From positions 1 through 19,350 of the forward strand of contig JAWALG010000023.1 in NCBI GenBank assembly GCA_038886995.1: a stretch of DNA of 19,350 bases, read 5' to 3'. Source of the stretch: Candidatus Iainarchaeum sp. (GTDB taxonomy: Archaea; Iainarchaeota; Iainarchaeia; Iainarchaeales; DTGL01). Of this stretch, positions 678-19,116 are shown piece after piece; position 1 is the first letter of the stretch, and every line of letters starts with the position of its first letter. Position numbers and translations under genes: made by a program. The notes below the pieces were generated by a model. That model was not told where the DNA came from. It did not search any database and saw only the letters and a list, made by a program, of their open reading frames with translations.

Positions 678-2228
678 TTATCTCCTAAAAAGCCCAAAGA
701 AAGATCTCTTGGGTTTTTCTGTCTGAATTACTGGCTGAACCGGTGGTATTTGTTCCTTAGGTGTTGGTGTTTGCTGTGTCAACTGAGGCACTTGTTGTTG
801 CTGCTCTACAGGCTTAGCTTCTTTCGCTTTCTTTTGAAGCTCTGTTTTAACCTTAGCAGCTTTCTTAGCTGTCTTTGCCTTCTTTTTTGCCTTTGGTGCT
901 TTAACTTCTTTTTTGGGTATTTTCTTAACAACTTTTTTCTTTTCCTCGACAGGTGTAATATAAAGTTTACCGAAGAGCCAATTAGTATGTCCTTTAAACC
1001 ATTTGGCTGCTACGCTGCCGTCCTTAGCAAAAAATACAACGGTTGAGTTCCTTTCCGTTATAGAATAGTCCTTTGACTCATATGTGCAAGGAAAATCAGC
1101 ACTCGGAAGAGGCAGCTCTACTTTTGCTGGCAAAAGGTTTACCAAGGATTCAAAAGCAAAAGCATTCCATGCTGGGCAAGGCAAAACATCCTGCCAAAGC
1201 GGTTGCTTTGGCTTTTCGCCAATTTCATAAAGAACATTGCAAAAGCCAACATAGGATGGCAATGCGCCGTTAGAGTATTGCCTTGACAAAACGCTTTCAA
1301 TTACACTGTCAGCTAAATTGCTCTTAACGCCAAGGGGCGCTAACTGCTTGATTGTAGAAGCAATTAAAGCGCTGTTTGCAACATAGAGGGGGTACTTTAA
1401 GAATGTGTTTCCTCTGTATCCGTAATAATAAAGCTTTTCCGTGGGATGTATGCTTTTATCCAAAAAGGAGACAGCATCTTTAAGGCGTTCCACTACTTTT
1501 TCATCTTGCTTAATTTCACACATCTCTGTTAACCCTTTGAGGGTAAAAGCACATTTGAAAAGTGGGGAAATTTCATCTTTTTCATCCATTGCAAAGCAAC
1601 CATCCTTATATTGGAATCTCAGCAGTTGTATTGCGGTCGGGATACAATAATCTGTAATCATGGATGGCTCGTTGACTAAGAGCGAATAGCGAATCACAGC
1701 ACGAATCGTTGTAGCAGCAGCTGGCAAGTTAAACAGCATAGTATTGTGGCTAAACTCAAGAAATGACTTTTTGTAATCCCAACACTTTGCTATTATAAAG
1801 CGCTCAATGTTGTTTTTAGCAACATTAAAAAATCTGTTATAATTCATATTTTGTTTCTTTAATACGCTGCATAACCTAGTAAGTGCGAGTGTTGCATAAG
1901 CATTTCCAAAAAGCGAAGCATATGTTTCTTCGCTTCCTGGCTTGTGCTCCAAGCAGGAATTATAAAATATATTTGCCTCCCAGATGTAATTTGAAACAAG
2001 CCACTCACCACATTTCAACGCATTGTCTAAATATTCTTGTGAGCCTGTTTTCTCGTAAAGCTTTAAGTAACCAAGCAAAAGCGCACCCTGGGATGCGCTG
2101 TCGGGTTCGATGAAAGCAAGTTGGCTTCTAACCGGGTCAACAATGTAGCTATGCAGGCCATGCGAGAGATCAAGCCAAGAGCTTAGGTAAAAGCCCAAAT
2201 TGCTTATGCTCTGACGCAAATCTGGCAT
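678..2228 (-). CDS. Alpha/alpha-toroid (six-hairpin glycosidase / prenyltransferase-repeat-like) protein with Lys/Gln-rich tail
   Basis: 519-aa ORF, probable start ATG 2228 (track start 2237). Helical repeats such as YLKLYEKTGSQEYLDNALKCGEWL and QxxDG-like motifs (QYKDGCF, QYSNGAL). Last gene of the sugar cluster; function unclear. Confidence 0.6.
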   Translation of the reverse strand: MPDLRQSISNLGFYLSSWLDLSHGLHSYIVDPVRSQLAFIEPDSASQGALLLGYLKLYEKTGSQEYLDNALKCGEWLVSNYIWEANIFYNSCLEHKPGSEETYASLFGNAYATLALTRLCSVLKKQNMNYNRFFNVAKNNIERFIIAKCWDYKKSFLEFSHNTMLFNLPAAATTIRAVIRYSLLVNEPSMITDYCIPTAIQLLRFQYKDGCFAMDEKDEISPLFKCAFTLKGLTEMCEIKQDEKVVERLKDAVSFLDKSIHPTEKLYYYGYRGNTFLKYPLYVANSALIASTIKQLAPLGVKSNLADSVIESVLSRQYSNGALPSYVGFCNVLYEIGEKPKQPLWQDVLPCPAWNAFAFESLVNLLPAKVELPLPSADFPCTYESKDYSITERNSTVVFFAKDGSVAAKWFKGHTNWLFGKLYITPVEEKKKVVKKIPKKEVKAPKAKKKAKTAKKAAKVKTELQKKAKEAKPVEQQQQVPQLTQQTPTPKEQIPPVQPVIQTEKPKRSFFGLFRR

Positions 2229-2266
2229 AACTACCAAACATAAGAAAAATTAAACTCTTTTTAATA

Positions 2267-3211
2267 TTAACGTTTTGGTTGCTTTTTAATAAACTGCTTA
2301 AACCAAGGGATTGTTTTGGAAAGCCCTTCTTCAAGTCCGACAGTTGGCTCCCACGAAAGGAGCTTCTTGGCTAAAGAAATGTCTGGTTTTCTCCTTTCAG
2401 GATCGTCTTTAGGCATTTCTTTGTAAACTATTTCAGAGCGTGATCCAGTGAGCTTTATTATGATTTTTGCAAGATCGATAATCTTATTTTCAGTTGGATT
2501 GCCAATGTTAATAGGCATGGAATAATCACAATGCATTAGCTGGTATAGCCCCTCTATGGTGTCGCTCACATAGCAAAAAGATCTTGTTTGTTCACCTTTG
2601 CCATAAACTGTTATTGGCTCATTATTGAGGGCTTGCATGATAAAATTTGGCATAACCCTCCCATCATTAATTGTCATCCTTGGGCCATATGTATTAAATA
2701 TCCTTGCAATTCTTGTCTTCAATCCGTACTTCCAGTAGTAATTCATGATAAGAGCTTCTGCAAATCTCTTTGATTCATCATAGCATGCTCTTGGGCCTAT
2801 TGGGTTAACATTGCCAAAATAGCTTTCAACCTGTGGGTGCACAAGAGGATTCCCATATACCTCTGAAGTGGATGTATGTAAAAAGCTTGCGTTCTTTTTC
2901 ATTGCTAACTCTAGCAGGTTTTTTACACCAACCGAATTAGCAAGCATTGTTTCTATCGGCATTCGTTGGTAGTGTATTGGGGAAGCAGGAGATGCTAGGT
3001 TATAGATTTCATCAATTTTGCCGGTAACATTAAGTTTTTTTGTTGTGTCGCCCTTTAAAAACTTAAACTTCTTTTTTGGCAGATGTATTATGTTCTGGGT
3101 TGTGCCCGTGCATAAATTATCTATGCCTATCACATAGTAGCCTTTGGATACAAGATACTCGGAAAGATGTGAGCCAAGAAAGCCGGCACAGCCGGTAACT
3201 AAGGCGCGCAT
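2267..3211 (-). CDS. uxs: UDP-glucuronate decarboxylase (UDP-xylose synthase) family SDR epimerase/dehydratase
   Basis: TGCAGFLG Rossmann motif, NLASPASPIHY, STSEVYG, NPIGPRACYDESKR (YxxxK), RIFNTYGPRM and DDPERRKPDI are all typical of this family. Confidence 0.9.
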   Translation of the reverse strand: MRALVTGCAGFLGSHLSEYLVSKGYYVIGIDNLCTGTTQNIIHLPKKKFKFLKGDTTKKLNVTGKIDEIYNLASPASPIHYQRMPIETMLANSVGVKNLLELAMKKNASFLHTSTSEVYGNPLVHPQVESYFGNVNPIGPRACYDESKRFAEALIMNYYWKYGLKTRIARIFNTYGPRMTINDGRVMPNFIMQALNNEPITVYGKGEQTRSFCYVSDTIEGLYQLMHCDYSMPINIGNPTENKIIDLAKIIIKLTGSRSEIVYKEMPKDDPERRKPDISLAKKLLSWEPTVGLEEGLSKTIPWFKQFIKKQPKR

Positions 3212-3951
3212 TTTATCTCCTTCCTAGCCATTTCTAGTGATTCCATTGAGCCAATGTCGAACCATTTGCCTTTGCAGCTATAAGCGTACGTATCCTCCTT
3301 CTTATGCAGCCATTGTATGAAAGTGCCAGCGGCATCAAGACCATGGCCAGCATTAGCATATTCTTCAAATAGTTTAACTACTTTCTTTGTGTAGAAATAT
3401 ATGCCTGTGCTCGCAAGTGTTGATTTTGGCTCAGGCGGCTTTTCCTGGAAGTCAATTATCTTCCAGTTTTTGTCAACAGCTAAAACACCATATTTCTTTG
3501 CTAACTCTATTGACCCAACATCATATGCGCCCAAAACGCATCTTTTCTTTTCCTTGTAGAGCTTATATATTGGCAGTAGTGAAAAATCAAATATGTTATC
3601 GCTGCTTATGTCAAGAAGCTCACCTTCAAGCCCTTTCTGTTTTATAGCTAACATCTTGTCGCCTATTGCCCCCAATCGTTCTTGCTCGTTGTTGGTGCCA
3701 TCGTTGATTATTTCGATTTCAAATTTGTAAGTGCTGCACGTACTTATGCCTTTTAGCCACTTTTCAAAAGAGTCATAGTAATAATTATTTGATATTATGT
3801 AAACTGAGTCAACACAGCCAAGTTCTTCTATTTTGTCAAGTATGTGTTCAATCACTGGCTTCCTTGCTACGTCTATTAATGCTTTGGGTATGTAATAAGT
3901 TAAAGGCCGCAGCCTTGTGCCATAACCGGCTGCGGGTATTATTGCCTTCAT
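3199..3951 (-). CDS. Sugar-1-phosphate nucleotidyltransferase (NTP_transferase family)
   Basis: PAAGYGTRLRPLT...PK, SSDNIFD, FQEKP and WFDIG motifs. Overlaps the uxs start. Context suggests a glucose-1-P uridylyl/thymidylyltransferase. Confidence 0.88.
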   Translation of the reverse strand: MKAIIPAAGYGTRLRPLTYYIPKALIDVARKPVIEHILDKIEELGCVDSVYIISNNYYYDSFEKWLKGISTCSTYKFEIEIINDGTNNEQERLGAIGDKMLAIKQKGLEGELLDISSDNIFDFSLLPIYKLYKEKKRCVLGAYDVGSIELAKKYGVLAVDKNWKIIDFQEKPPEPKSTLASTGIYFYTKKVVKLFEEYANAGHGLDAAGTFIQWLHKKEDTYAYSCKGKWFDIGSMESLEMARKEIKCAP

Positions 3952-3956
3952 AAGTT

Positions 3957-5072
3957 TTATTCCTCTGTCGGCTTAAACCTTTGCTCAAGTTTCTTTAGGA
4001 CATCTGGCAGCGTAGTGTATTCAAGTTCCTTTTCGCTAACTCTGTGTGGCTCAAATGGGCCATGCATACGCATGTAATCTGCAATTTCATTGCATCTTGC
4101 CCTTACATGGTCAAAGCTGACATCATCAAACAAGTCCTTCGGACCTATTAGCTCGCCATCACAGACCTGGAAGCCGAGACCAACAACCCTTGGGGGCCCA
4201 TCAAAGCGTGTTGGCGTGGCATACTTAAGCGAAACTGGCATCAAAGGCCCTTTGTGTGAACCCCTCATCCAGCCGCTTACAAGATGCCCAAGCGTAAAAC
4301 CTTCAATTACTTCACCAACCGAAGGAAATCCGCTTTGTGCCCTTACAATGCAAACTGGGTCGTCTTTTCCAACATACTGACCTGCCAGAACATTGAGCTT
4401 TTCTGTGCAAACCTCTGCTGCTATGCGCTCCTCAGGCGCTTCATTGCCTTTTTTATATACGCGCTTAATCGCATAAGTGCTTGTAGTACCTATAAGAGCT
4501 AACAAAGCGTACATCTCCTCAGGGCAATGGAGCGTTGCTTTCAAGTGCTTATAAACATCCATTATTTCAAAAGAAAACCCAGCTGTTGCTTTTGGGTCTA
4601 TAACAAGACCTGCTGTGTTGAAAGGATCAGCAAATACCTTGAAAAGTGGCAGGTTGAAAGCAGCTGGCTCTGTTTTGTCACATGCAAATATAAGCACCGG
4701 GTCTGATTTCCTTTCCATGAAAGTCATTTCTGCAATGCCTGGACCTTGGCCCCTTACATTTCCTGAGAATGAGTCGCTAAGCAGGTCTTGGCCTGCAGCG
4801 TAAAGCTTCTTGCTTCTGGCATATTGTGCGACCTTCATGAAGCCATCCCAAGCAAGCTTATGAACCTCTGTGTTGTCGCGACCTTTTCTGTGTGTCATCA
4901 CGGTTTCAAGGTCATCTCCGCAGTTGAAAACATGGTAATCTATTATTGTGCCTGCCTTTTTAGCTGCTTCAAGATGGTCTTCCATCAACTTAATCATTTC
5001 AGGCAGCACTGTTATATGCCCAGAAAGGCTTCCAACATCTGCCTTTATGCAGGATACAGTAATTAACCCCAT
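3957..5072 (-). CDS. fbp: Bifunctional fructose-1,6-bisphosphate aldolase/phosphatase (class V FBPase)
   Basis: KADVGS..GH, CGDD, GQDLL, DKTEP, YVGKDDP (Schiff-base Lys), GWMRGSH, RFDGPP and GPFEPHR motifs; strong SD upstream. Confidence 0.96.
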   Translation of the reverse strand: MGLITVSCIKADVGSLSGHITVLPEMIKLMEDHLEAAKKAGTIIDYHVFNCGDDLETVMTHRKGRDNTEVHKLAWDGFMKVAQYARSKKLYAAGQDLLSDSFSGNVRGQGPGIAEMTFMERKSDPVLIFACDKTEPAAFNLPLFKVFADPFNTAGLVIDPKATAGFSFEIMDVYKHLKATLHCPEEMYALLALIGTTSTYAIKRVYKKGNEAPEERIAAEVCTEKLNVLAGQYVGKDDPVCIVRAQSGFPSVGEVIEGFTLGHLVSGWMRGSHKGPLMPVSLKYATPTRFDGPPRVVGLGFQVCDGELIGPKDLFDDVSFDHVRARCNEIADYMRMHGPFEPHRVSEKELEYTTLPDVLKKLEQRFKPTEE

Positions 5073-5077
5073 TTATA

Positions 5078-5086
5078 CACCTCCTT
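5078..5086 (-). promoter_or_regulatory. Shine-Dalgarno site of fbp
   Basis: Minus strand reads AAGGAGGTG-tataa-ATG. Confidence 0.8.
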
Positions 5087-5096
5087 AATATGAACA

Positions 5097-6380
5097 TTAT
5101 GTTCCAATCCCCTCATAAACAAAGCCAATATCACTAATGTTTTTCTTATTTAAAAGGTTTCTGCCATCTATTATCAGCGGGTTTTTCATGTTCTTGCGGA
5201 TTCTTCTGTAGTCAAGATTCGCAAATTCTTTCCATTCGGTTACAATAACAATAGCATCTGCACCTCTTGCTGCATCATAGGCATTTTTGTAGTAGCGGAT
5301 ATCTGGAAATTCGCGCTTTGCATTGCCCATTGCTGCTGGATCATAAGCGCAAACAATAGCACCTTCTTTTTTGAGGGATTTAATTATTGTAAGGCTGCTT
5401 GCAAACCTAATGTCATCAGTGTTGGGTTTAAATGAAAGCCCAAGCAAAGCAATTCGCTTGCCTTTTAGACTTCCAAGGTGCTTCTTAAGCTTAAGCACCG
5501 GTTGAAGCTTTGCTTTTTCGTTTGAAAGGTAAGCAGCTAATGCAATGCTTTGTTGCGCCCCATCTTTTTTACCCATGTAAACAAGGGCACTAACATCTTT
5601 TGGGAAACATGAACCGCCCCAACCGCAGCCAGCGTTCAGGAAATAAGGGCCTATGCGCTTATCCATGCCAACGCCCTTTGAAACTGAGACAACATTTGCG
5701 CCAACTTTATCACAAAGCATTGCAATTTCATTTATGAAAGAAATCTTTATTGCAAGTAGAGCATTTGAAGCATACTTTATTAGCTCCGCTGTGCGCAAAT
5801 CAGTATAAAACCTCTTGCCTTTTATTGGCTTATAAAGCTCTTTCATGGCCTTCTTTGCTTCTTTGCTTTCGTACCCAACAACAATCCTGTCTGGCTTCAT
5901 AAAATCATTTACTGCGCTGCCTTCACGCAGAAACTCTGGATTTGATACAACATGGAATTTGCCATCATATTTAGAACTAACTATCTCCTTCAAAAGGTCT
6001 GCGGTTCCAACTGGCACTGTGCTCTTATTTACAATTATCTTTTCATCGCTTATTGAGCTGGCAATATCAAGCGCTGCTTTTTTCCAGTAGCTAAGGTTTG
6101 CCTCACCACTCTTTTTTTGTGGGGTGCAAACCGCAATCATAACTACATAAGAGTTGCGCACCGCTTCCTGGGTTTTTGTTGTAAAGCTTAGCCTACCTTG
6201 CTTAATGTTCTTCTTGATTAGTGCTTCTAAGCCGGGCTCATATATTGGACACAACCCTTTTTTCAGCATGCTTATTTTTTTCTTATCTATATCTGCACAT
6301 ACAACATTGTGTCCAATCTCAGCAAGGCAAGCCCCAGTGACAAGGCCTACATAGCCAGTACCTATGACTGCAACACGCAT
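5097..6380 (-). CDS. ugd: UDP-glucose 6-dehydrogenase (UDP-glucose/GDP-mannose dehydrogenase family)
   Basis: IGTGYVG, PIYEPGL, KSTVPVGT, SNPEFLREG, AELIKY, GGSCFPKD (catalytic Cys), FKPNTDDIR and DGRN motifs. Confidence 0.95.
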   Translation of the reverse strand: MRVAVIGTGYVGLVTGACLAEIGHNVVCADIDKKKISMLKKGLCPIYEPGLEALIKKNIKQGRLSFTTKTQEAVRNSYVVMIAVCTPQKKSGEANLSYWKKAALDIASSISDEKIIVNKSTVPVGTADLLKEIVSSKYDGKFHVVSNPEFLREGSAVNDFMKPDRIVVGYESKEAKKAMKELYKPIKGKRFYTDLRTAELIKYASNALLAIKISFINEIAMLCDKVGANVVSVSKGVGMDKRIGPYFLNAGCGWGGSCFPKDVSALVYMGKKDGAQQSIALAAYLSNEKAKLQPVLKLKKHLGSLKGKRIALLGLSFKPNTDDIRFASSLTIIKSLKKEGAIVCAYDPAAMGNAKREFPDIRYYKNAYDAARGADAIVIVTEWKEFANLDYRRIRKNMKNPLIIDGRNLLNKKNISDIGFVYEGIGT

Positions 6381-6450
6381 AAAAATCAGAAAAATTTAAC
6401 AGCACAAAATTTAATAAATGAATCTTTCATAACTTGTATGAACTGTTATG
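6381..6450. promoter_or_regulatory. Divergent promoter region between ugd and the RHH fusion gene, with repeats
   Basis: AAAATTTAA twice (6391, 6406); inverted repeat TTCATA-N5-TATGAA (6426-6442); near-direct repeats AACTTGTATG/AACTGTTATG (6431-6450). Confidence 0.55.
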
Positions 6451-7275
6451 AGGACAACTACTCCAAAAAGAGCTCGTGTGACCATCTCTATACGCAACGA
6501 CCTGATTTCTAAGGTTGACTCTTTGGTGGATGGCTTATCGTTAAGGAGCAGGAGCCAAGCTGTTGAATATATTTTAAGTAAGGCGCTTGGTGAAAAACTA
6601 ATTACTGCGCTGGTGCTTGCTGGCGGAAAGCCGAATGATATAAGCATAGATGGCAAAATAAAGTTTATGTCGCGCATTGGCGATAGGGTACTTCTCGAAC
6701 ACACACTTAACCATCTGCATGGCTTAGGGATAAACAGGTTTATAGTTTATGTTGACTACAAAAAAGAGGAAATTGTCAGGCATTTCAACAACTTAAGCTT
6801 GCCATACAATGTAAATTTTATATATGGTGAAAAAGCTTTTGGCACGATAGGGCCTTTAATGATGGCAAAGTCACATCTAAAGGAAACATTCCTTCTAGCA
6901 TATGGCGATACAATTTGCAGAATAAACCTAAGCAGCATGTACGATTTTCACAAAGAGCACTCAAGTAAAGCTACGATTGCACTCACAAGTGTTGATGAAC
7001 CAAAAAATTATGGGGTTGCTGTTATGGAAGGTGCAAAGATAAAGGATTTCATTGAAAAGCCCAAAAAAATGGTTGAAAGCTATCTTGTTAGCGCTGGCTA
7101 CTTTATAATGGAGCCGGCTGTTTTTTCGTACATAGCACCCACAGACAAGAGCATTGAAAAAGACCTATTCCCAAGAATGGCAAAGCAGGACCTTCTTTAT
7201 GGTTATCCCTTTCAAGGTCTTTACCTCAACATAAATAAAAGAGCCGACATTGAAAAAGCAAAGCTTTTCCTTTAA
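6448..7275 (+). CDS. Ribbon-helix-helix (CopG/NikR-like) domain fused to a degenerate sugar-phosphate nucleotidyltransferase domain
   Basis: The N-terminus RARVTISIRNDLISKVDSLV...SRSQAVEYIL fits the RHH pattern. The rest has LAGG, GT.GP, YGD and FIEKP, but the GxGT/SRL loop and the WxD motif are altered. Confidence 0.85.
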   Translation: MRTTTPKRARVTISIRNDLISKVDSLVDGLSLRSRSQAVEYILSKALGEKLITALVLAGGKPNDISIDGKIKFMSRIGDRVLLEHTLNHLHGLGINRFIVYVDYKKEEIVRHFNNLSLPYNVNFIYGEKAFGTIGPLMMAKSHLKETFLLAYGDTICRINLSSMYDFHKEHSSKATIALTSVDEPKNYGVAVMEGAKIKDFIEKPKKMVESYLVSAGYFIMEPAVFSYIAPTDKSIEKDLFPRMAKQDLLYGYPFQGLYLNINKRADIEKAKLFL

Positions 7276-7317
7276 GTTAAAATTCAAATTATAAACATAT
7301 CGTATCCATAAACGCAT

Positions 7318-8085
7318 ATGAAAAAAGCAGGGAAGACCCCAATAAAAAATAAAGTGACTGATGCATTTGTGCTGGCTGGTGGCTTAGGTTCGCGCCTTAG
7401 GCCTTTCACCCTTGAAATACCAAAGCCAATGCTTCCTGTGAAAGGCAAGCCAATAGTTGAGTATAACATAAGGAACCTTATTGAACACGGCGTAAAGCAT
7501 ATTGTGCTCGGAGTTGGCTACAAAAGTGAAGCAATAAAGGCCTACTTTGGCAATCGCTTCTGTGGTGCAAAAATTACCTACTGCGTTGAGGATAAGCCAC
7601 TTGGCACTGCTGGTGCAATCAAGAATGCGGAAAGTCATATTAGAGGCAAAAGCTTTTTTGTTTGCAACGGCGATGAGATAAAAGATGTAAATTATACCAA
7701 GATGGCTATCTTACTTGAGAATAAAAAAGCGCTTGGCGTTATTGCACTCAAGCAACTCCAGAATATTGAAAACCTCGGTGTTGTTGAACTTAAAGGCAAT
7801 AAGATACTCAGATTCATAGAAAAGCCAAGGCCTTGGGAGACAGAAAGCAGAACAGTAAATGCTGGCGCATATGTTTTCTCCAAAAAGGTTTTGCACATGA
7901 TACCCAAGAAAAAGCGGTATAGCCTTGAGAGGGACGTTTTCCCTGTGTTATCATTTGAGCAAAAGCTTTATGGGTGCAAATGCGTTGGCCAATGGTTTCC
8001 AACAGATACCCCAGAAAGATATGAGAGGGCAATAAAAAAAGCAAATTTTTTTAGAAGGTGGTTTGATGCACAAGATAGTAAATAA
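7318..8085 (+). CDS. Sugar-phosphate nucleotidyltransferase (mannose-1-P guanylyltransferase-like)
   Basis: LAGGLGSRLRPFT..PKPM, PLGTAGAI, NGDE, FIEKP and NAGAYVF motifs. TTATAAA lies about 23 nt upstream of the ATG, suggesting a leaderless transcript. Confidence 0.88.
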   Translation: MKKAGKTPIKNKVTDAFVLAGGLGSRLRPFTLEIPKPMLPVKGKPIVEYNIRNLIEHGVKHIVLGVGYKSEAIKAYFGNRFCGAKITYCVEDKPLGTAGAIKNAESHIRGKSFFVCNGDEIKDVNYTKMAILLENKKALGVIALKQLQNIENLGVVELKGNKILRFIEKPRPWETESRTVNAGAYVFSKKVLHMIPKKKRYSLERDVFPVLSFEQKLYGCKCVGQWFPTDTPERYERAIKKANFFRRWFDAQDSK

Positions 8086-10741: not shown

Positions 10742-10848
10742 GTTACCAATAATAACACACTTTAAAAAGTATTAAAAACATTTTTAGAGGAGATTTTAGT
10801 ATAAGAATGATTTATATTTAACAAATTCACTGGGTGAGGGTGATAATT

Positions 10849-13800
10849 TTGGTTGAAAAAAAGCCTACATTTTTTTTAAAAAATACTCTTTCTTTGCTAA
10901 TCCTTCTTTCCATTTTTGCGTCTTCTGCTCTTGGCGCAGAGCCCATAATAACACTGATTACGCCGACCGAAGGTGCATATCTTAAAAGTGGCCTGCAAAG
11001 AATTGAATTCAATGCAATGGACTCTGATATAAACGGCGATCCAAACAAAGAGCTATGGGTTGATTTCTATTATAGCGCTTCACCAGGCCAATTTCAAAAT
11101 TTCATAAGCACTCAAAATCTTTCTGATCCTGGCTCTAGCTTTTGCCAGAGCACTAACTTTGTAACACCTGTGAGATGCTATGTTGACATAACCTTGCCCT
11201 CACTTCCTGACGGCAACTATTTCCTTGATATGAACTTTTATGAAAAGCAAAACGAAGCAGTCAATGACTTTAACAAGATATCATCAAAGGTTTTCTATAT
11301 TGATAATACGCCACCAACAATAAACTTAACCTCGCCTGAAGCAAATTGTGGTGGAGATGTAAACATAACAAGCAATAACATAAAGTTTAATCTTAGCGAT
11401 ACTTCAAGCGGAATTTCTACTGCCACTATTTCAGTTACGGGGGCGCAGAGAGACGGCAACTTTAACTTTTCAAGTTTCTGTTCGACTTCAGATGGCGGCA
11501 AAAATTATGTGTGTGATTATAATGAGGTCGCTGTAGACCGAACTGGAACTTACGTTTTAAGAATCGTGGCTTATGACCTGGCAATAACTGCTTCAGAAGC
11601 AAGAAACTCTGCGGACTGCAACTTAACGATTAGATATACTGACAACAATCCACCAAACAGCCCTGTAAGGTTGCTGGCGTACGCAGGACCTGGGTCAATT
11701 ACACTTACATGGGTTGCAAACACAGAGTATGACATAAATGGCTACAAAATATATTATAGAACAAACGATTGCAATTTTACGAAGGAAACAGCAACGCTTG
11801 CTGGTTTTACAAAACAAACAAACTATGTTTTACAGGACCTTAACAGCGACCTTAACTATCACATAAGGATTTCTGCTATTGACTTGAGCGGCAATGAAAG
11901 TGAACTTTCTGACTGCAACAAAATAAAGCCAAACAGGCGCATATTGCCCTCAATGCCTGAGTTCTATTCAAGCACGCATGAAAATGGTGAATGGAGCAAA
12001 GACAGAAATGTTTTAATTACCTGGAGTGCTGTTGCCGGCGCTATCGGTTATTCTTGCACATGGGATACGGCAGCAACAAAAGAGCCAGACCAGATAATTG
12101 ACTCTAACAATTATTGTGCAAACAGGCGACTAGACATAAACAATCTAAATGAAGGAATATACTATTTGAAGGTTCGTGCTTGTGACTCAAATAGTGTCTG
12201 TAGCAATGTTGCAACTTTCACTGTAAAGATTGATTTCACAAAACCAAGCAAACCGAGCAATCTTGAAGCCACACTGGACAACGAAAATGTAAAGCTTACA
12301 TGGGCTGTTTCAACTGATGCTAGAAGCGGCATAAAGGAATATCGTGTTTATAGGGGCACAGAAAGCGATTTCAACATAGATGATAACAATAGGAGAGCTA
12401 TCCTCGTAGATAACACATGGACCGACACAAAGGCAAGCTCCGGTACTAAATACTATTACAAAGTAGTGGCAATTGACAATGCTGGGAACGTTAGTGATGC
12501 TGCAAGCGTGAGCATCACTACAGCAGCAGCAAAAGTAGTAATAGATGTACCACAGTATGCCAACGCTGGAAGCAAAACCATCCGGATTAGGTCTACCGAT
12601 GAGCTTGTGGATGCATATGTTTACATAAAGAAAGCAACAGATGCTAGCTGGGTTAAAATTAGGGGGCCTGTTACGGATGATGATTTCACAGCAACTTTCA
12701 CTGTTGCGAGTGGAGATGATGGTGTTGCTAAAGTAAAAGTTGTTGCTGACAATCTAAGCGAAACAATAAAAACATTTGAGATAGATACAAAGAAGCCAGA
12801 AGTTACATGGATTTCGCCAGAGCAAGGTGCATTAATTGAGGGTACTTTTACACTCAAAGTTAGAACTGATGAACCACAGACAAAAATGGAAAGCGTTACC
12901 TTTTATATTGACAACAACAAAATAGCAACGCTCACAGCGGCCTCTGAGGAAGGTATTTACTGGACATATAACTGGAATTCTTCAAGTTTGCCAAAGGGCA
13001 GCTACACTCTCAAAGCGGTTGCAATTGACAAAGCAGGCAATGAAGGCTCAGCAGCGGTAAACATAGGCATCGGTGGCGTAATAGCGCAGCCATCAAAGAA
13101 AACCGAGGCAGAGAAAAAAATAGCAGAGCTTATATTAAAAAGGACTGAAGCTGCAAACATGCTCCAGAGCATAAAGAGCTATGGTCTTGAGATAAACAAG
13201 GAGGCAAGCAATCTCTACAATGCTATGGTACAAGCAATATTCGATGCAAACACAAATTATAACAAAGGGGACTATGATTTTGCCATTGAGAAGGCAAATG
13301 ACGCATATGCAAAATTCAACTCCTTGTTTGCAAACTATGGCTTTTCTGAAGCCGAGACAAAGGTATTAGAAATGAGCAAAGACGCAGCTAAAGCATTTCT
13401 TTTAGCCAATGGCTTTTCAGAGGCCTCAGCAGAAGATGCTGCAAGCAAAACAGCTGGATCAGCTGCCAAAAAAATTGTAAAAGTATTAATGGTAAAGGAC
13501 AATAATGTAGTGAGCTATTATGTGAAAGTATTTTTGCAGTTCAAAATGTTGGACGAAAAAATGCTTGTCCTTGAGAGTGTCCCAAAAGAGCTCACAAAAA
13601 GCGCTTCTGAATTAAAATCAGATGTTGCATTTGAAGTCATAAAAGACGATCCGCTGCTATTGTTCAAGCCACAAAAAAAGGATTCGGAGGATGTAATAAT
13701 TGAGTATTCTCTTAAGGCGCCGCTAAATGCAGCAGAATACCAAGCACTGAAAGCAAAAAATGCCTTTGAGCCAAGCGCCTTTGCTTTGGTAATTGACCAA

Positions 13801-13974
13801 CAGATGCCTAAAAGCGATATTTTGGAAGCGTTTTTGTATGCGGTCGCAATACTTTTTATACTGCTAATAGTGGGGTTGACACTTTTATACATACTAAAGA
13901 AAAAGAACAGTGGCTTCAGAGGTGGCAAATCAGAGCCACAGAGAAGAGGCCCAAGATGGGCATATAGGGGATGA
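10849..13974 (+). CDS. Large membrane-anchored cell-surface protein with fibronectin type III / Ig-like domains
   Basis: Signal peptide (...IFASSALGA), FN3 motifs (ITLTW...GYKIYY; YYYKVVAIDNAGN.S), Ig-like D.AGN repeats, a helical stalk, a C-terminal TM helix and a basic tail. TTG 10849 follows GAGGGTGA; GTG 10834 is the alternative start. Confidence 0.85.
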   Translation: MVEKKPTFFLKNTLSLLILLSIFASSALGAEPIITLITPTEGAYLKSGLQRIEFNAMDSDINGDPNKELWVDFYYSASPGQFQNFISTQNLSDPGSSFCQSTNFVTPVRCYVDITLPSLPDGNYFLDMNFYEKQNEAVNDFNKISSKVFYIDNTPPTINLTSPEANCGGDVNITSNNIKFNLSDTSSGISTATISVTGAQRDGNFNFSSFCSTSDGGKNYVCDYNEVAVDRTGTYVLRIVAYDLAITASEARNSADCNLTIRYTDNNPPNSPVRLLAYAGPGSITLTWVANTEYDINGYKIYYRTNDCNFTKETATLAGFTKQTNYVLQDLNSDLNYHIRISAIDLSGNESELSDCNKIKPNRRILPSMPEFYSSTHENGEWSKDRNVLITWSAVAGAIGYSCTWDTAATKEPDQIIDSNNYCANRRLDINNLNEGIYYLKVRACDSNSVCSNVATFTVKIDFTKPSKPSNLEATLDNENVKLTWAVSTDARSGIKEYRVYRGTESDFNIDDNNRRAILVDNTWTDTKASSGTKYYYKVVAIDNAGNVSDAASVSITTAAAKVVIDVPQYANAGSKTIRIRSTDELVDAYVYIKKATDASWVKIRGPVTDDDFTATFTVASGDDGVAKVKVVADNLSETIKTFEIDTKKPEVTWISPEQGALIEGTFTLKVRTDEPQTKMESVTFYIDNNKIATLTAASEEGIYWTYNWNSSSLPKGSYTLKAVAIDKAGNEGSAAVNIGIGGVIAQPSKKTEAEKKIAELILKRTEAANMLQSIKSYGLEINKEASNLYNAMVQAIFDANTNYNKGDYDFAIEKANDAYAKFNSLFANYGFSEAETKVLEMSKDAAKAFLLANGFSEASAEDAASKTAGSAAKKIVKVLMVKDNNVVSYYVKVFLQFKMLDEKMLVLESVPKELTKSASELKSDVAFEVIKDDPLLLFKPQKKDSEDVIIEYSLKAPLNAAEYQALKAKNAFEPSAFALVIDQQMPKSDILEAFLYAVAILFILLIVGLTLLYILKKKNSGFRGGKSEPQRRGPRWAYRG

Positions 13975-18234: not shown

Positions 18235-19116
18235 TTAAATTAACTCGTTGGTCCCAATATTGACGCATTCAAAGCAAGAGATTTTTCCAAAAACTACCTT
18301 AATTCCTTCATTTCTAAGCTTTTTTGCCTTTCCTTTAGAACCAAACTTATAGCCGCCCAAGGAACCGTCACTTTTGACTATGCGATGGCATGGAACACTT
18401 TCAAATGGGTTCTTTTTCAACGCAATGCCCACGGCCCTATATGCTTTTGATCCAATCGTAGATGCTATTCCCTTGTAGGTTGCGACGCGCCCTTTTGGCA
18501 CTTTCTTAACTATGCTGTATACTTTCTCAGAAAACTCGCTAACATAAAGCAAATTGCTTTCTATGTATTCCCACACACTTGGCTCAAGAAATTTCTTTGC
18601 ACTGTTGCCTTTTCTTATCTCTTCCCTTATGCGTTTCGAAGAAATAAAATCAATTGCGCTTTCGAGCACTTTTGCTTTTATTTTTCTTAGGACATCTTTC
18701 CTTAACTTGATGCCTTTTATTGGCACAACGACAAAACTTGTTTCTTGTGCAAGATCATTAAATTTATACCAGCGCGGAAGTTCGGGAAGCAAGTCCGAGC
18801 CAATTACCCAACAAAATTCCTTTTCTGGATTCCTTCTCTTAAGCTCTCTAATGGTTTCTATAGTTGTGTTTGGCTTTTTCATGTTTGCTGCAAGCTCTTT
18901 TTCAATGAGACAAAGTTTGAACCTTTTTTCACCTTTTATGCAAAGCTTTATCATCTCAACCCTGTGATCAAAGCTTATCAGTTCTGGCTTAAAAAAATGC
19001 CTGTAGCAGGGTACAAACCAAACTCCACTGCAAAGCCCACTGCTAAGCACTAACCTTGCAGCACGCAAATGGCCTTTATGTATTGGGTTGAAACTCCCGC
19101 CAAAAACAGCAATCAT
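18235..19116 (-). CDS. nadD: Nicotinate-nucleotide adenylyltransferase fused to an O6-alkylguanine-DNA alkyltransferase (MGMT) C-terminal domain
   Basis: FGGSFNPIHKGH, WFVP, R.EM, T.ET, IGSD...L..W, ISS..IR and YI..N.LY, then in frame VPKGRVATY...RAVG...VPCHRIV..DG.LGGY...EG. Confidence 0.9.
   Translation of the reverse strand: MIAVFGGSFNPIHKGHLRAARLVLSSGLCSGVWFVPCYRHFFKPELISFDHRVEMIKLCIKGEKRFKLCLIEKELAANMKKPNTTIETIRELKRRNPEKEFCWVIGSDLLPELPRWYKFNDLAQETSFVVVPIKGIKLRKDVLRKIKAKVLESAIDFISSKRIREEIRKGNSAKKFLEPSVWEYIESNLLYVSEFSEKVYSIVKKVPKGRVATYKGIASTIGSKAYRAVGIALKKNPFESVPCHRIVKSDGSLGGYKFGSKGKAKKLRNEGIKVVFGKISCFECVNIGTNELI

Follow-up and report, generated by a model that had tools for sequence, protein, structure and literature searches.

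A predicted autorepressor joining a NikR-like ribbon-helix-helix domain to a degenerate sugar nucleotidyltransferase domain in Candidatus Iainarchaeum

NikR carries at its N-terminus a ribbon-helix-helix (RHH) domain that binds DNA, has a C-terminal domain in the same polypeptide that binds a ligand, and represses transcription; its operator in Escherichia coli is given as GTATGA-N16-TCATAC in PMC7055735, and a consensus for the enterobacterial NikR operators also appears in PMC545781. In PutA an N-terminal RHH domain is fused to a metabolic enzyme and the protein is described as an autogenous repressor (PMC5293562). GMPPA, a non-catalytic paralogue of GMPP, is reported to bind GDP-mannose and to regulate GMPPB (PMC11228364), the two proteins making contact through a beta-helix domain (PMC9168903). 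The working concept of the present analysis is already known from these proteins; what appears to be new is the fusion described here and the hypothesis connecting its operator with a ligand. The fusion protein, P0001, joins an RHH domain to a nucleotidyltransferase fold and is encoded in a 19,350-nt stretch (the window) of the Candidatus Iainarchaeum sp. contig JAWALG010000023.1 (assembly GCA_038886995.1). We propose, with a probability of about 0.6, that P0001 is an autoregulated one-component repressor whose pseudoenzyme domain senses a nucleoside diphosphate (NDP) sugar. Domain identities, motif loss, operator conservation and synteny were computed, and from these we infer DNA binding, the direction of regulation, the kind of ligand and catalytic inactivity.

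An initial annotation had placed an RHH domain at about residues 7-47 of P0001, and this was borne out for residues 8-48. P0001 alone gives weak NikR matches over residues 10-49 (NCBIfam, E 0.0016; PDB entry 1q5v, E 0.032), and the 40 N-terminal residues of NikR are its only non-enzyme NCBIfam matches. A profile of 22 N-termini (from the window and the fetched loci) matches E. coli NikR with E 5.3e-7, P. horikoshii NikR with E 0.0022 and CopG with E 0.19, and Pfam RHH_1 is matched by 37 of 83 relatives (best E 2.4e-6). The identity of the domain is therefore settled by family-level profiles, though P0001 alone is marginal. The strand R10-V-T12-I-S14-I aligns with RVTITL of NikR and so follows the pattern R-x-T-x-T/S; the aligned NikR residues Arg3, Thr5 and Thr7 presumably touch DNA bases, and in the 83-member clade to which P0001 belongs (the window clade) R10 is conserved in 99% and T12 in 100%. 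AlphaFold2 (AF2) models of the full-length protein and of the domain by itself agree on an extended N-terminal segment followed by helices at residues 17-26 and 35-47 (predicted local distance difference test, pLDDT, 83-92; 86 for the domain-only model), which is the beta-alpha-alpha topology, with the strand itself not assigned in these monomer models. The top Foldseek match of the domain-only model, and its closest solved relative, is NikR (3od2_B; probability 0.96, TM 0.62, 36% identity, E 0.22). Profile match, topology and repeated half-sites near a promoter (see below) were thus all found in silico, and profiles and models together indicate that the NikR-like RHH domain is real. A predicted homodimer of the family (two copies) scored 0.18 and 0.03, which counts neither way on dimerization. 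By analogy with NikR, P0001 would also carry its ligand-binding domain C-terminally on the same chain and repress transcription, although that domain is tetrameric and metal-binding in NikR and has an NTP_transferase fold in P0001. The possibility that the RHH domain is part of a toxin-antitoxin system was dropped, as a toxin partner is lacking and the fold of the C-terminal domain is a metabolic one.

New evidence for the regulator idea comes from a predicted operator at the promoter of P0001 itself. When the window was compared with ten Iainarchaeal orthologue loci (L001-L010), a TATA-like box was seen to precede TCATA-N5-TATGA in all 11 promoters, and another TATGA usually comes after a further five bases (consensus TTTAAATATAnGAATGnnTCATAnATAGTATGAnAAAGTATGA). 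The pattern or a one-mismatch variant is present in all 11, exact pentamer pairs spaced by 3-6 nt occur in ten, and L010 has the one-mismatch version. The window's own half-sites read TCATAA (6427-6432), GTATGA (6436-6441) and TTATGA (6446-6451, containing the ATG), so that the predicted operator is TCATAA-N3-GTATGA-N4-TTATGA; its first half-site lies 9 nt 3' of the TATA-like box, whose position is kept in the alignment. Exact pentamer pairs were also found in 16 of 18 further orthologue genomes (16 of 17 testable), one of the remaining stretches being cut to only 43 nt by the end of its contig and the other, from L100 (genus of L010), carrying a degenerate version; overall, 26 of 28 testable orthologue promoters have half-site pairs. 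When all fused genes examined were considered, including those of Patescibacteria and Micrarchaeota and paralogues with an intact signature loop, a pair lay within -150 to +12 in 18 of 23, as against none at 59 unfused homologues searched from -300 to +12 (one of these stretches being 16 nt long) and a background rate of 0.008 per search window. An unbiased count of 2080 hexamers put GTATGA/TCATAC first among the close orthologues (10/11, p 8e-14) and, independently, first again among the distant fused genes, Patescibacteria included (6/12, p 2.5e-6). These hexamers are identical to the NikR half-sites; in NikR, however, they lie 16 bp apart as GTATGA...TCATAC, whereas in P0001 they are 3-4 bp apart as TCATA(C)...GTATGA with a third, direct copy. 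Such a tandem layout resembles that of Arc, MetJ or CopG. With its adjacent sites at about 10-bp spacing and the reversed order of its first pair, the arrangement suggests dimers that sit side by side along the same DNA face and not a pair of dimers placed far apart.

Within the 866-kb genome the exact palindrome occurs at two places and a reversed control pattern at none. The second copy (C9:7453) lies inside a 573-amino-acid open reading frame (ORF), and the site at the promoter of P0001 is the best match to the position weight matrix (PWM) in the whole genome. Other matches of the pattern lie inside coding regions or are unconvincing, and no convincing operator was found upstream of the downstream GMPP-like gene P0002 or of its unfused orthologues. 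Elsewhere in the genome (G000:C31:9504) a repetitive 414-amino-acid ORF contains three hexamers of GTATGA type, spaced at about 10 bp, probably by chance or as coding repeats. On three contigs of Patescibacteria type (L013:2300-2392, L014:5900-5998 and L016:900-988) TTGAC directly precedes GTATGA-N4-GTATGA 5' of the fused gene; two of these contigs are titled Gammaproteobacteria, which looks like an issue of binning labels. The 300-nt gap between ugd and the regulator gene at L004:4963-5263 contains long AT-rich direct repeats 5' of the operator, including two copies of a unit of about 21 nt ending in TTTAAATAT.

The remainder of P0001 matches Pfam NTP_transferase (residues 54-246, E 1.2e-22), with all NCBIfam enzyme models far under their cut-offs (Arch_glmU, for example, at 94 bits vs 292). 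The full-length AF2 model, built on 83 relatives, has a mean pLDDT of 91 and a predicted template modelling score (pTM) of 0.82, and shows a Rossmann-like fold after a five-residue linker. Human GMPPB and Arabidopsis VTC1 are the best matches in sequence and structure: they came first in Foldseek (E about 3e-20), where the GMPPA chain 7d72_A was also listed, and phmmer matched residues 77-268 with E 6e-28; a PDB profile match to the GMPP-type fold has E 4.5e-21. The phmmer alignments with GMPPB and VTC1 begin only at residues 77-79, and the signature loop is on this account no longer alignable. In alignments with intact relatives, residues 59-72 read GGKPNDISIDGKIK in place of GGKGTRLRPITxEIPK; in this loop, GGKPNDI, the Thr-Arg of GxGTR is gone, two residues are missing and Lys72 is kept. 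Residues 259-263 are YLNIN where the intact relatives have WFDTG, and YGD (152-154) and EKP (203-205) are retained. From these alignments with intact relatives and with GMPPB/VTC1 it is clear that the initial annotation described the motifs accurately, having reported a degenerate GGxG[TS]RLxP loop without its nucleoside triphosphate (NTP)-binding Arg, the change of WxDIG to YLNIN with Asp becoming Asn (residue 261 here) and the survival of YGD and EKP.

The motifs were further set against the description of the VTC1 active site in PMC9168903, where Thr12 and Arg13 contact pyrophosphate (PPi) and Asp219 is called catalytically critical. VTC1 Gly9, Lys23, Gly85, Asp111, Tyr145-Gly146, the E-K-P motif and Glu195-Lys196 correspond to Gly60, Lys72, Gly132, Asp154, Tyr188-Gly189, Glu203-Lys204-Pro205 and Glu237-Lys238 of P0001; Asn109, Asn173, Trp217 and Asp219 are replaced by Tyr152, Ser215, Tyr259 and Asn261; Thr12/Arg13 are lost; and the acidic residue that reads guanine (five before the Gly of LGT in VTC1) has become Gly127. 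P0001 therefore has the Rossmann-like NTP_transferase fold, the Lys of the PK motif, EKP, YG and the Glu-Lys of S-I-E-K, and lacks both the G-x-G-[TS]-R loop and the acidic pair at the metal/phosphate site, where Asp154 is kept and the second residue is Asn261. To judge from the sequence it most likely no longer catalyses nucleotidyl transfer. Unlike GMPPB and VTC1 it has an added RHH domain and no left-handed beta-helix domain, since the protein ends at residue 275. The beta-helix is likewise what sets it apart from the non-catalytic paralogues GMPPA, plant KJC1/2 and bacterial GalF, which have that domain and no DNA-binding domain and act by protein-protein allostery on an active enzyme; the likeness to them would lie in the GMPP-type fold and, in principle, in a dead paralogue that senses an NDP-sugar product. 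The enzyme domains of PutA are active flavoenzymes with a redox- and membrane-dependent switch, so that trifunctional PutA resembles P0001 in its N-terminal RHH joined to a metabolic enzyme fold but differs in that the fold of P0001 looks inactive.

The lost motifs do not appear to reflect general decay. Mean column conservation was compared between the 83 members of the window clade and 34 fused relatives with an intact loop. The loop (positions 61-71) falls to 0.37 in the window clade vs 0.94 in the intact group, the rest of the transferase domain stands at 0.65 vs 0.72, and the RHH domain is the better conserved in the window clade (0.79 vs 0.63). Several replacements have themselves become fixed or nearly so: position 261 is Asn in all 83 members (Asp in 79% of the intact relatives), 263 is Asn in 98% (Gly in the intact relatives), 259 is Tyr in 93% (Trp) and 152 is Tyr in 83% (Asn). 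No member of the window clade departs from Gly132, Gly189, Lys204, Pro205 or Gly217, and Asp154 and Glu237 are each kept in 99%. By this measure of sequence conservation the putative sensor domain is remodelled rather than decaying.

The initial annotation, which knew of no characterised regulator with this architecture, also implied that it was rare. The former still stands, as no description of an RHH-sugar-nucleotidyltransferase fusion was found in the full-text literature, a scope outside which most subscription journals and supplements fall; rarity does not, for the fusion is no isolated case and its large family extends over DPANN archaea and Patescibacteria. A search of 90%-identity clusters gave 342 matches at E<=0.001 among 1829 candidates; in the best 120 of these the alignment spans no less than 92% of the query and always takes in the RHH domain. 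Judged strictly by the pattern G-x-[GA]-[ST]-R, which under-calls variants such as GxGxR, 34 of them keep the loop and 86 do not. In a more distant set (the best 150 of 13,704 50%-identity representatives at E<=0.001, less two of under 200 amino acids; n=148) the fusion is present in 122, six with an intact and 116 with a degenerate loop on the same criterion. Source names and contig titles assign the fused proteins to Diapherotrites/Iainarchaeum, Aenigmatarchaeota, Woesearchaeota, Micrarchaeota and several Patescibacteria, and databases annotate them only as 'nucleotidyltransferase family protein' or similar. Distribution in the phylum of the window is patchy: 32 of 151 sampled genomes have a match at E<=1e-30, with 5/5 in the genus itself and 0/15 to 0/26 in some families. 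In a FastTree phylogeny of the transferase domain (197 sequences, the root placed arbitrarily on the paralogue encoded at 3199-3951) the window clade comprises 31 leaves, all fused and degenerate (support 0.98), and is nested in a 141-leaf clade that has support 0.94 and no intact members. Of 19 fused sequences with an intact loop, 18 fall outside this larger clade. The orthologues of P0002 form a clade (support 0.98) of three RHH-fused and six unfused members. Two P0002 orthologues (L005:8325-9170 and L010:6896-7741) have an RHH domain of their own and an intact GGKGTRLRP loop, and each of their genes is accompanied by a separate array of the form TCATA-N5-TATGA-N4/5-(G)TATGA, located directly at the start codon. 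A nucleotidyltransferase homologue from a Heimdallarchaeota metagenome-assembled genome (L042:5884-6735) has a partly degenerate loop (GGRGTSFRP) and an N-terminal extension of about 50 amino acids that might be a divergent RHH domain.

A nearly invariant divergent neighbour of the regulator gene is ugd. In the window the two genes diverge from a common 67-bp intergenic region, with 46 nt between the operator and the start codon of ugd. All ten fetched loci have ugd divergent from the regulator, in each case followed by a transferase gene and uxs, and among 27 genomes with an orthologue of at least 46% identity ugd is divergent with a gap of less than 310 nt in 25. In the other two, one locus is divided between contigs and one has a 705-nt gap with an inserted gene carrying the operator. 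Ugd is also present in 51 of 119 sampled genomes without the regulator. The ugd-fbp-uxs layout given in the initial annotation was confirmed, except that it omitted a further NTP-transferase gene in that operon (3199-3951). Its proposal of a one-component regulator gains from the conserved operator at the gene's own promoter, the NikR half-sites and the near-invariant ugd; the suggested control of gluconeogenesis does not, since fbp is in the divergent operon at only four of 11 loci (three of the ten fetched and the window). P0002 adjoins P0001 only in the window, L001 and L002 (3/11 loci). Distant fused genes adjoin genes for GAPDH and phosphoglycerate mutase, UDP-GlcNAc 2-epimerase or a GT2 glycosyltransferase, or lie near GlmS; GAPDH is next to the fused gene in L013 and L014, with phosphoglycerate mutase also in L014, and TrmB-family regulators are found nearby in L014 and L016.

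In the mechanism that we favour, NikR-type RHH dimers of P0001 would bind the GTATGA-type hexamer array at 6427-6451, which would place them just 3' of the TATA-like box and over the start of both transcription and translation of their own gene. This is the classical archaeal position for blocking polymerase recruitment, and from the position of the array at the TATA-like box and start it follows that occupancy should block recruitment of RNA polymerase. The outcome would be autorepression, together with repression of the P0002 gene if this is co-transcribed, as it may be. Because the 67-bp intergenic region is shared, the same complex would probably also modulate the promoter of ugd-(fbp)-NTP-transferase-uxs; from synteny, such control is plausible in the window. 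The C-terminal GMPP-type fold, with its NTP/PPi-binding loop and one metal-binding Asp lost and most of the sugar-nucleotide pocket kept, would bind an NDP-sugar, probably a uridine diphosphate (UDP) sugar of the branch from UDP-glucose through UDP-glucuronate to UDP-xylose (UDP-Glc -> UDP-GlcA -> UDP-Xyl), and ligand binding would alter how the RHH dimers assemble cooperatively, or how they are oriented, on the array. P0001 might in this way act as a switch, under its own control, for genes of cell-surface sugars. A UDP-sugar rather than GDP-mannose is suggested by the partnership with ugd and uxs and by the loss of the guanine-reading residue.

It should be noted that several observations weigh against this mechanism. 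P0001 alone does not match Pfam RHH_1 at E<=0.01, and the remaining Foldseek matches of the RHH-only model, mostly RHH-type proteins, reach E-values no lower than 0.2, as expected for a model of 46 residues. With one mismatch allowed, the palindrome was found once in the window vs 0.65 times expected, which is not significant, so that the weight of the operator comes only from its conservation across genomes. Neither the exact palindrome nor the PWM nor pentamer pairs revealed a second promoter site in the genome, and no separate operator was found on the ugd side; moreover the distance from the array to the ugd start varies (47-276 nt in relatives, several of them at 65-276 nt), so that no conserved position underlies any control of ugd. 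No feature positively identifies the ligand, the guanine-reading position being Gly127. The degenerate loop is rich in Lys and Arg in many members, and because Lys72, Asp154 and Glu237-Lys238 persist as well, some residual catalysis is conceivable. P0001 might on these grounds be a bifunctional 'trigger enzyme', an active nucleotidyltransferase that also represses its own gene in the manner of trifunctional PutA (PMC5293562), and would then resemble both the fused relatives that retain the GxGTR loop (34 of the best 120) and the L005/L010 paralogues with operators of their own. Lys72, Asp154, EKP and Glu237-Lys238 fit such an enzyme; the loss of Thr-Arg from a shortened loop that evolves freely (0.37 vs 0.94) and cannot be aligned to GMPPB does not, nor does Asn in 83/83 clade members where VTC1 has its critical Asp, and we consider it distinctly unlikely.

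Opposite in kind is the idea that P0001 is a DNA-binding repressor in which the nucleotidyltransferase fold is merely an oligomerization scaffold with no small-molecule input. The strong constraint on the pocket, for which a mere scaffold would have no use (Gly132, Gly189, Lys204, Pro205 and Gly217 at 100%, Glu237 at 99%, with Asn261 and Asn263 as new fixed residues), makes this unlikely, even granting that the operator evidence requires no ligand and that the base-reading acidic residue is gone (Gly127). P0001 could also be a subunit like GalF or GMPPA that controls P0002 or the 3199-3951 product by protein contact, its RHH domain serving only to dimerize. GMPPA provides the precedent (PMC11228364), all active paralogues are encoded within 5 kb, and the regulator gene adjoins that of P0002 in the window, L001 and L002; that adjacency, however, extends to only 3/11 loci, GTATGA arrays are kept at promoters of fused genes and occur at 0/59 unfused ones, conservation is high at the positions that read DNA (R10 99%, T12 100%), and the beta-helix through which GMPPA and GMPPB make contact according to PMC9168903 is absent, so that a role of this kind is very improbable. 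Across these comparisons an NDP-sugar-sensing autorepressor accounts best for P0001.

A wider reading, which we put forward only tentatively and would not yet back at even odds, is that the fusions form one large undescribed family of transcription factors responsive to sugar nucleotides, which DPANN archaea and Patescibacteria share and whose members all recognise NikR-type hexamers (GTATGA). They would have started out as trigger enzymes whose loop was intact and which repressed their own genes (compare L005/L010), and would then have radiated into pseudoenzyme sensors, that of the Iainarchaeia binding a UDP-sugar of the Ugd/Uxs branch and switching both divergent promoters. The genomes of DPANN archaea and Patescibacteria are tiny, the regulators that can be recognised in them are very few, and genetic tools are lacking. 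If the wider reading is correct, the Iainarchaeial sensor would be a principal regulator of glycan precursors in organisms with hardly any known regulators. The locus would also document the transition from enzyme to pseudoenzyme sensor with intact and degenerate forms side by side. The locus offers a testable triad of regulator, precise predicted operator with half-sites understood from NikR and short list of candidate ligands, and it could supply a naturally occurring DNA-binding module, responsive to an NDP-sugar, for use as a biosensor.

Table 1. Features of the P0001 locus (positions in the window)
Feature	Position	Strand	Remarks
Coding sequence of the RHH-nucleotidyltransferase fusion protein P0001	6448-7275	+	Open frame, 275 amino acids
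RHH DNA-binding domain of P0001, residues 8-48	6469-6591	+	Profile, model and strand match to NikR
GMPP-like NTP_transferase (Rossmann-like) domain of P0001, residues 54-275	6607-7272	+	Without left-handed beta-helix tail
Degenerate signature loop of P0001, residues 59-72	6622-6663	+	GGKPNDISIDGKIK
YLNIN of P0001, residues 259-263	7222-7236	+	In place of WxDxG
Predicted operator	6427-6451		Three hexamer half-sites at about 10-bp spacing
TATA-like box TTTAATAA	6410-6417		Alignment of 11 promoters; putative promoter role
ugd (UDP-glucose 6-dehydrogenase)	5097-6380	-	Divergent neighbour; first gene of the minus-strand operon
fbp (class V fructose-1,6-bisphosphatase, FBPase_3)	3957-5072	-	
Intact NTP_transferase, AglF/GalU-like	3199-3951	-	GYGTRLRP; probable UDP-sugar pyrophosphorylase
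uxs (UDP-glucuronate decarboxylase-like SDR)	2267-3211	-	
P0002, intact GMPP-like NTP_transferase	7318-8085	+	Starts 42 nt 3' of the P0001 gene

The minus-strand operon runs in the order ugd, class V FBPase, AglF/GalU-like transferase, UXS-type decarboxylase and a 519-amino-acid protein (Table 1). The last (678-2237, minus strand) has a C-terminal tail rich in Lys, Pro and Gln and no Pfam match, and is kept in L001 (89% identity) and L002 (58%). The genome is 88.6% complete and has only three PF00483 genes, all inside 5 kb (3199-8085). Further along the window, 10834-13974 (plus strand) encodes a protein of 1046 amino acids with an N-terminal signal-like segment, repeated fibronectin/Ig-like stretches and a C-terminal membrane anchor, features that make it probably a surface protein; it is kept in L001 at 74% identity. 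A second fusion of an enzyme with a DNA-related domain in the window is the 293-amino-acid protein encoded at 18235-19116 (minus strand), in which a cytidylyltransferase-like domain of the NMN adenylyltransferase type (residues 4-165) is joined to a 6-O-methylguanine DNA methyltransferase DNA-binding domain (residues 194-272).

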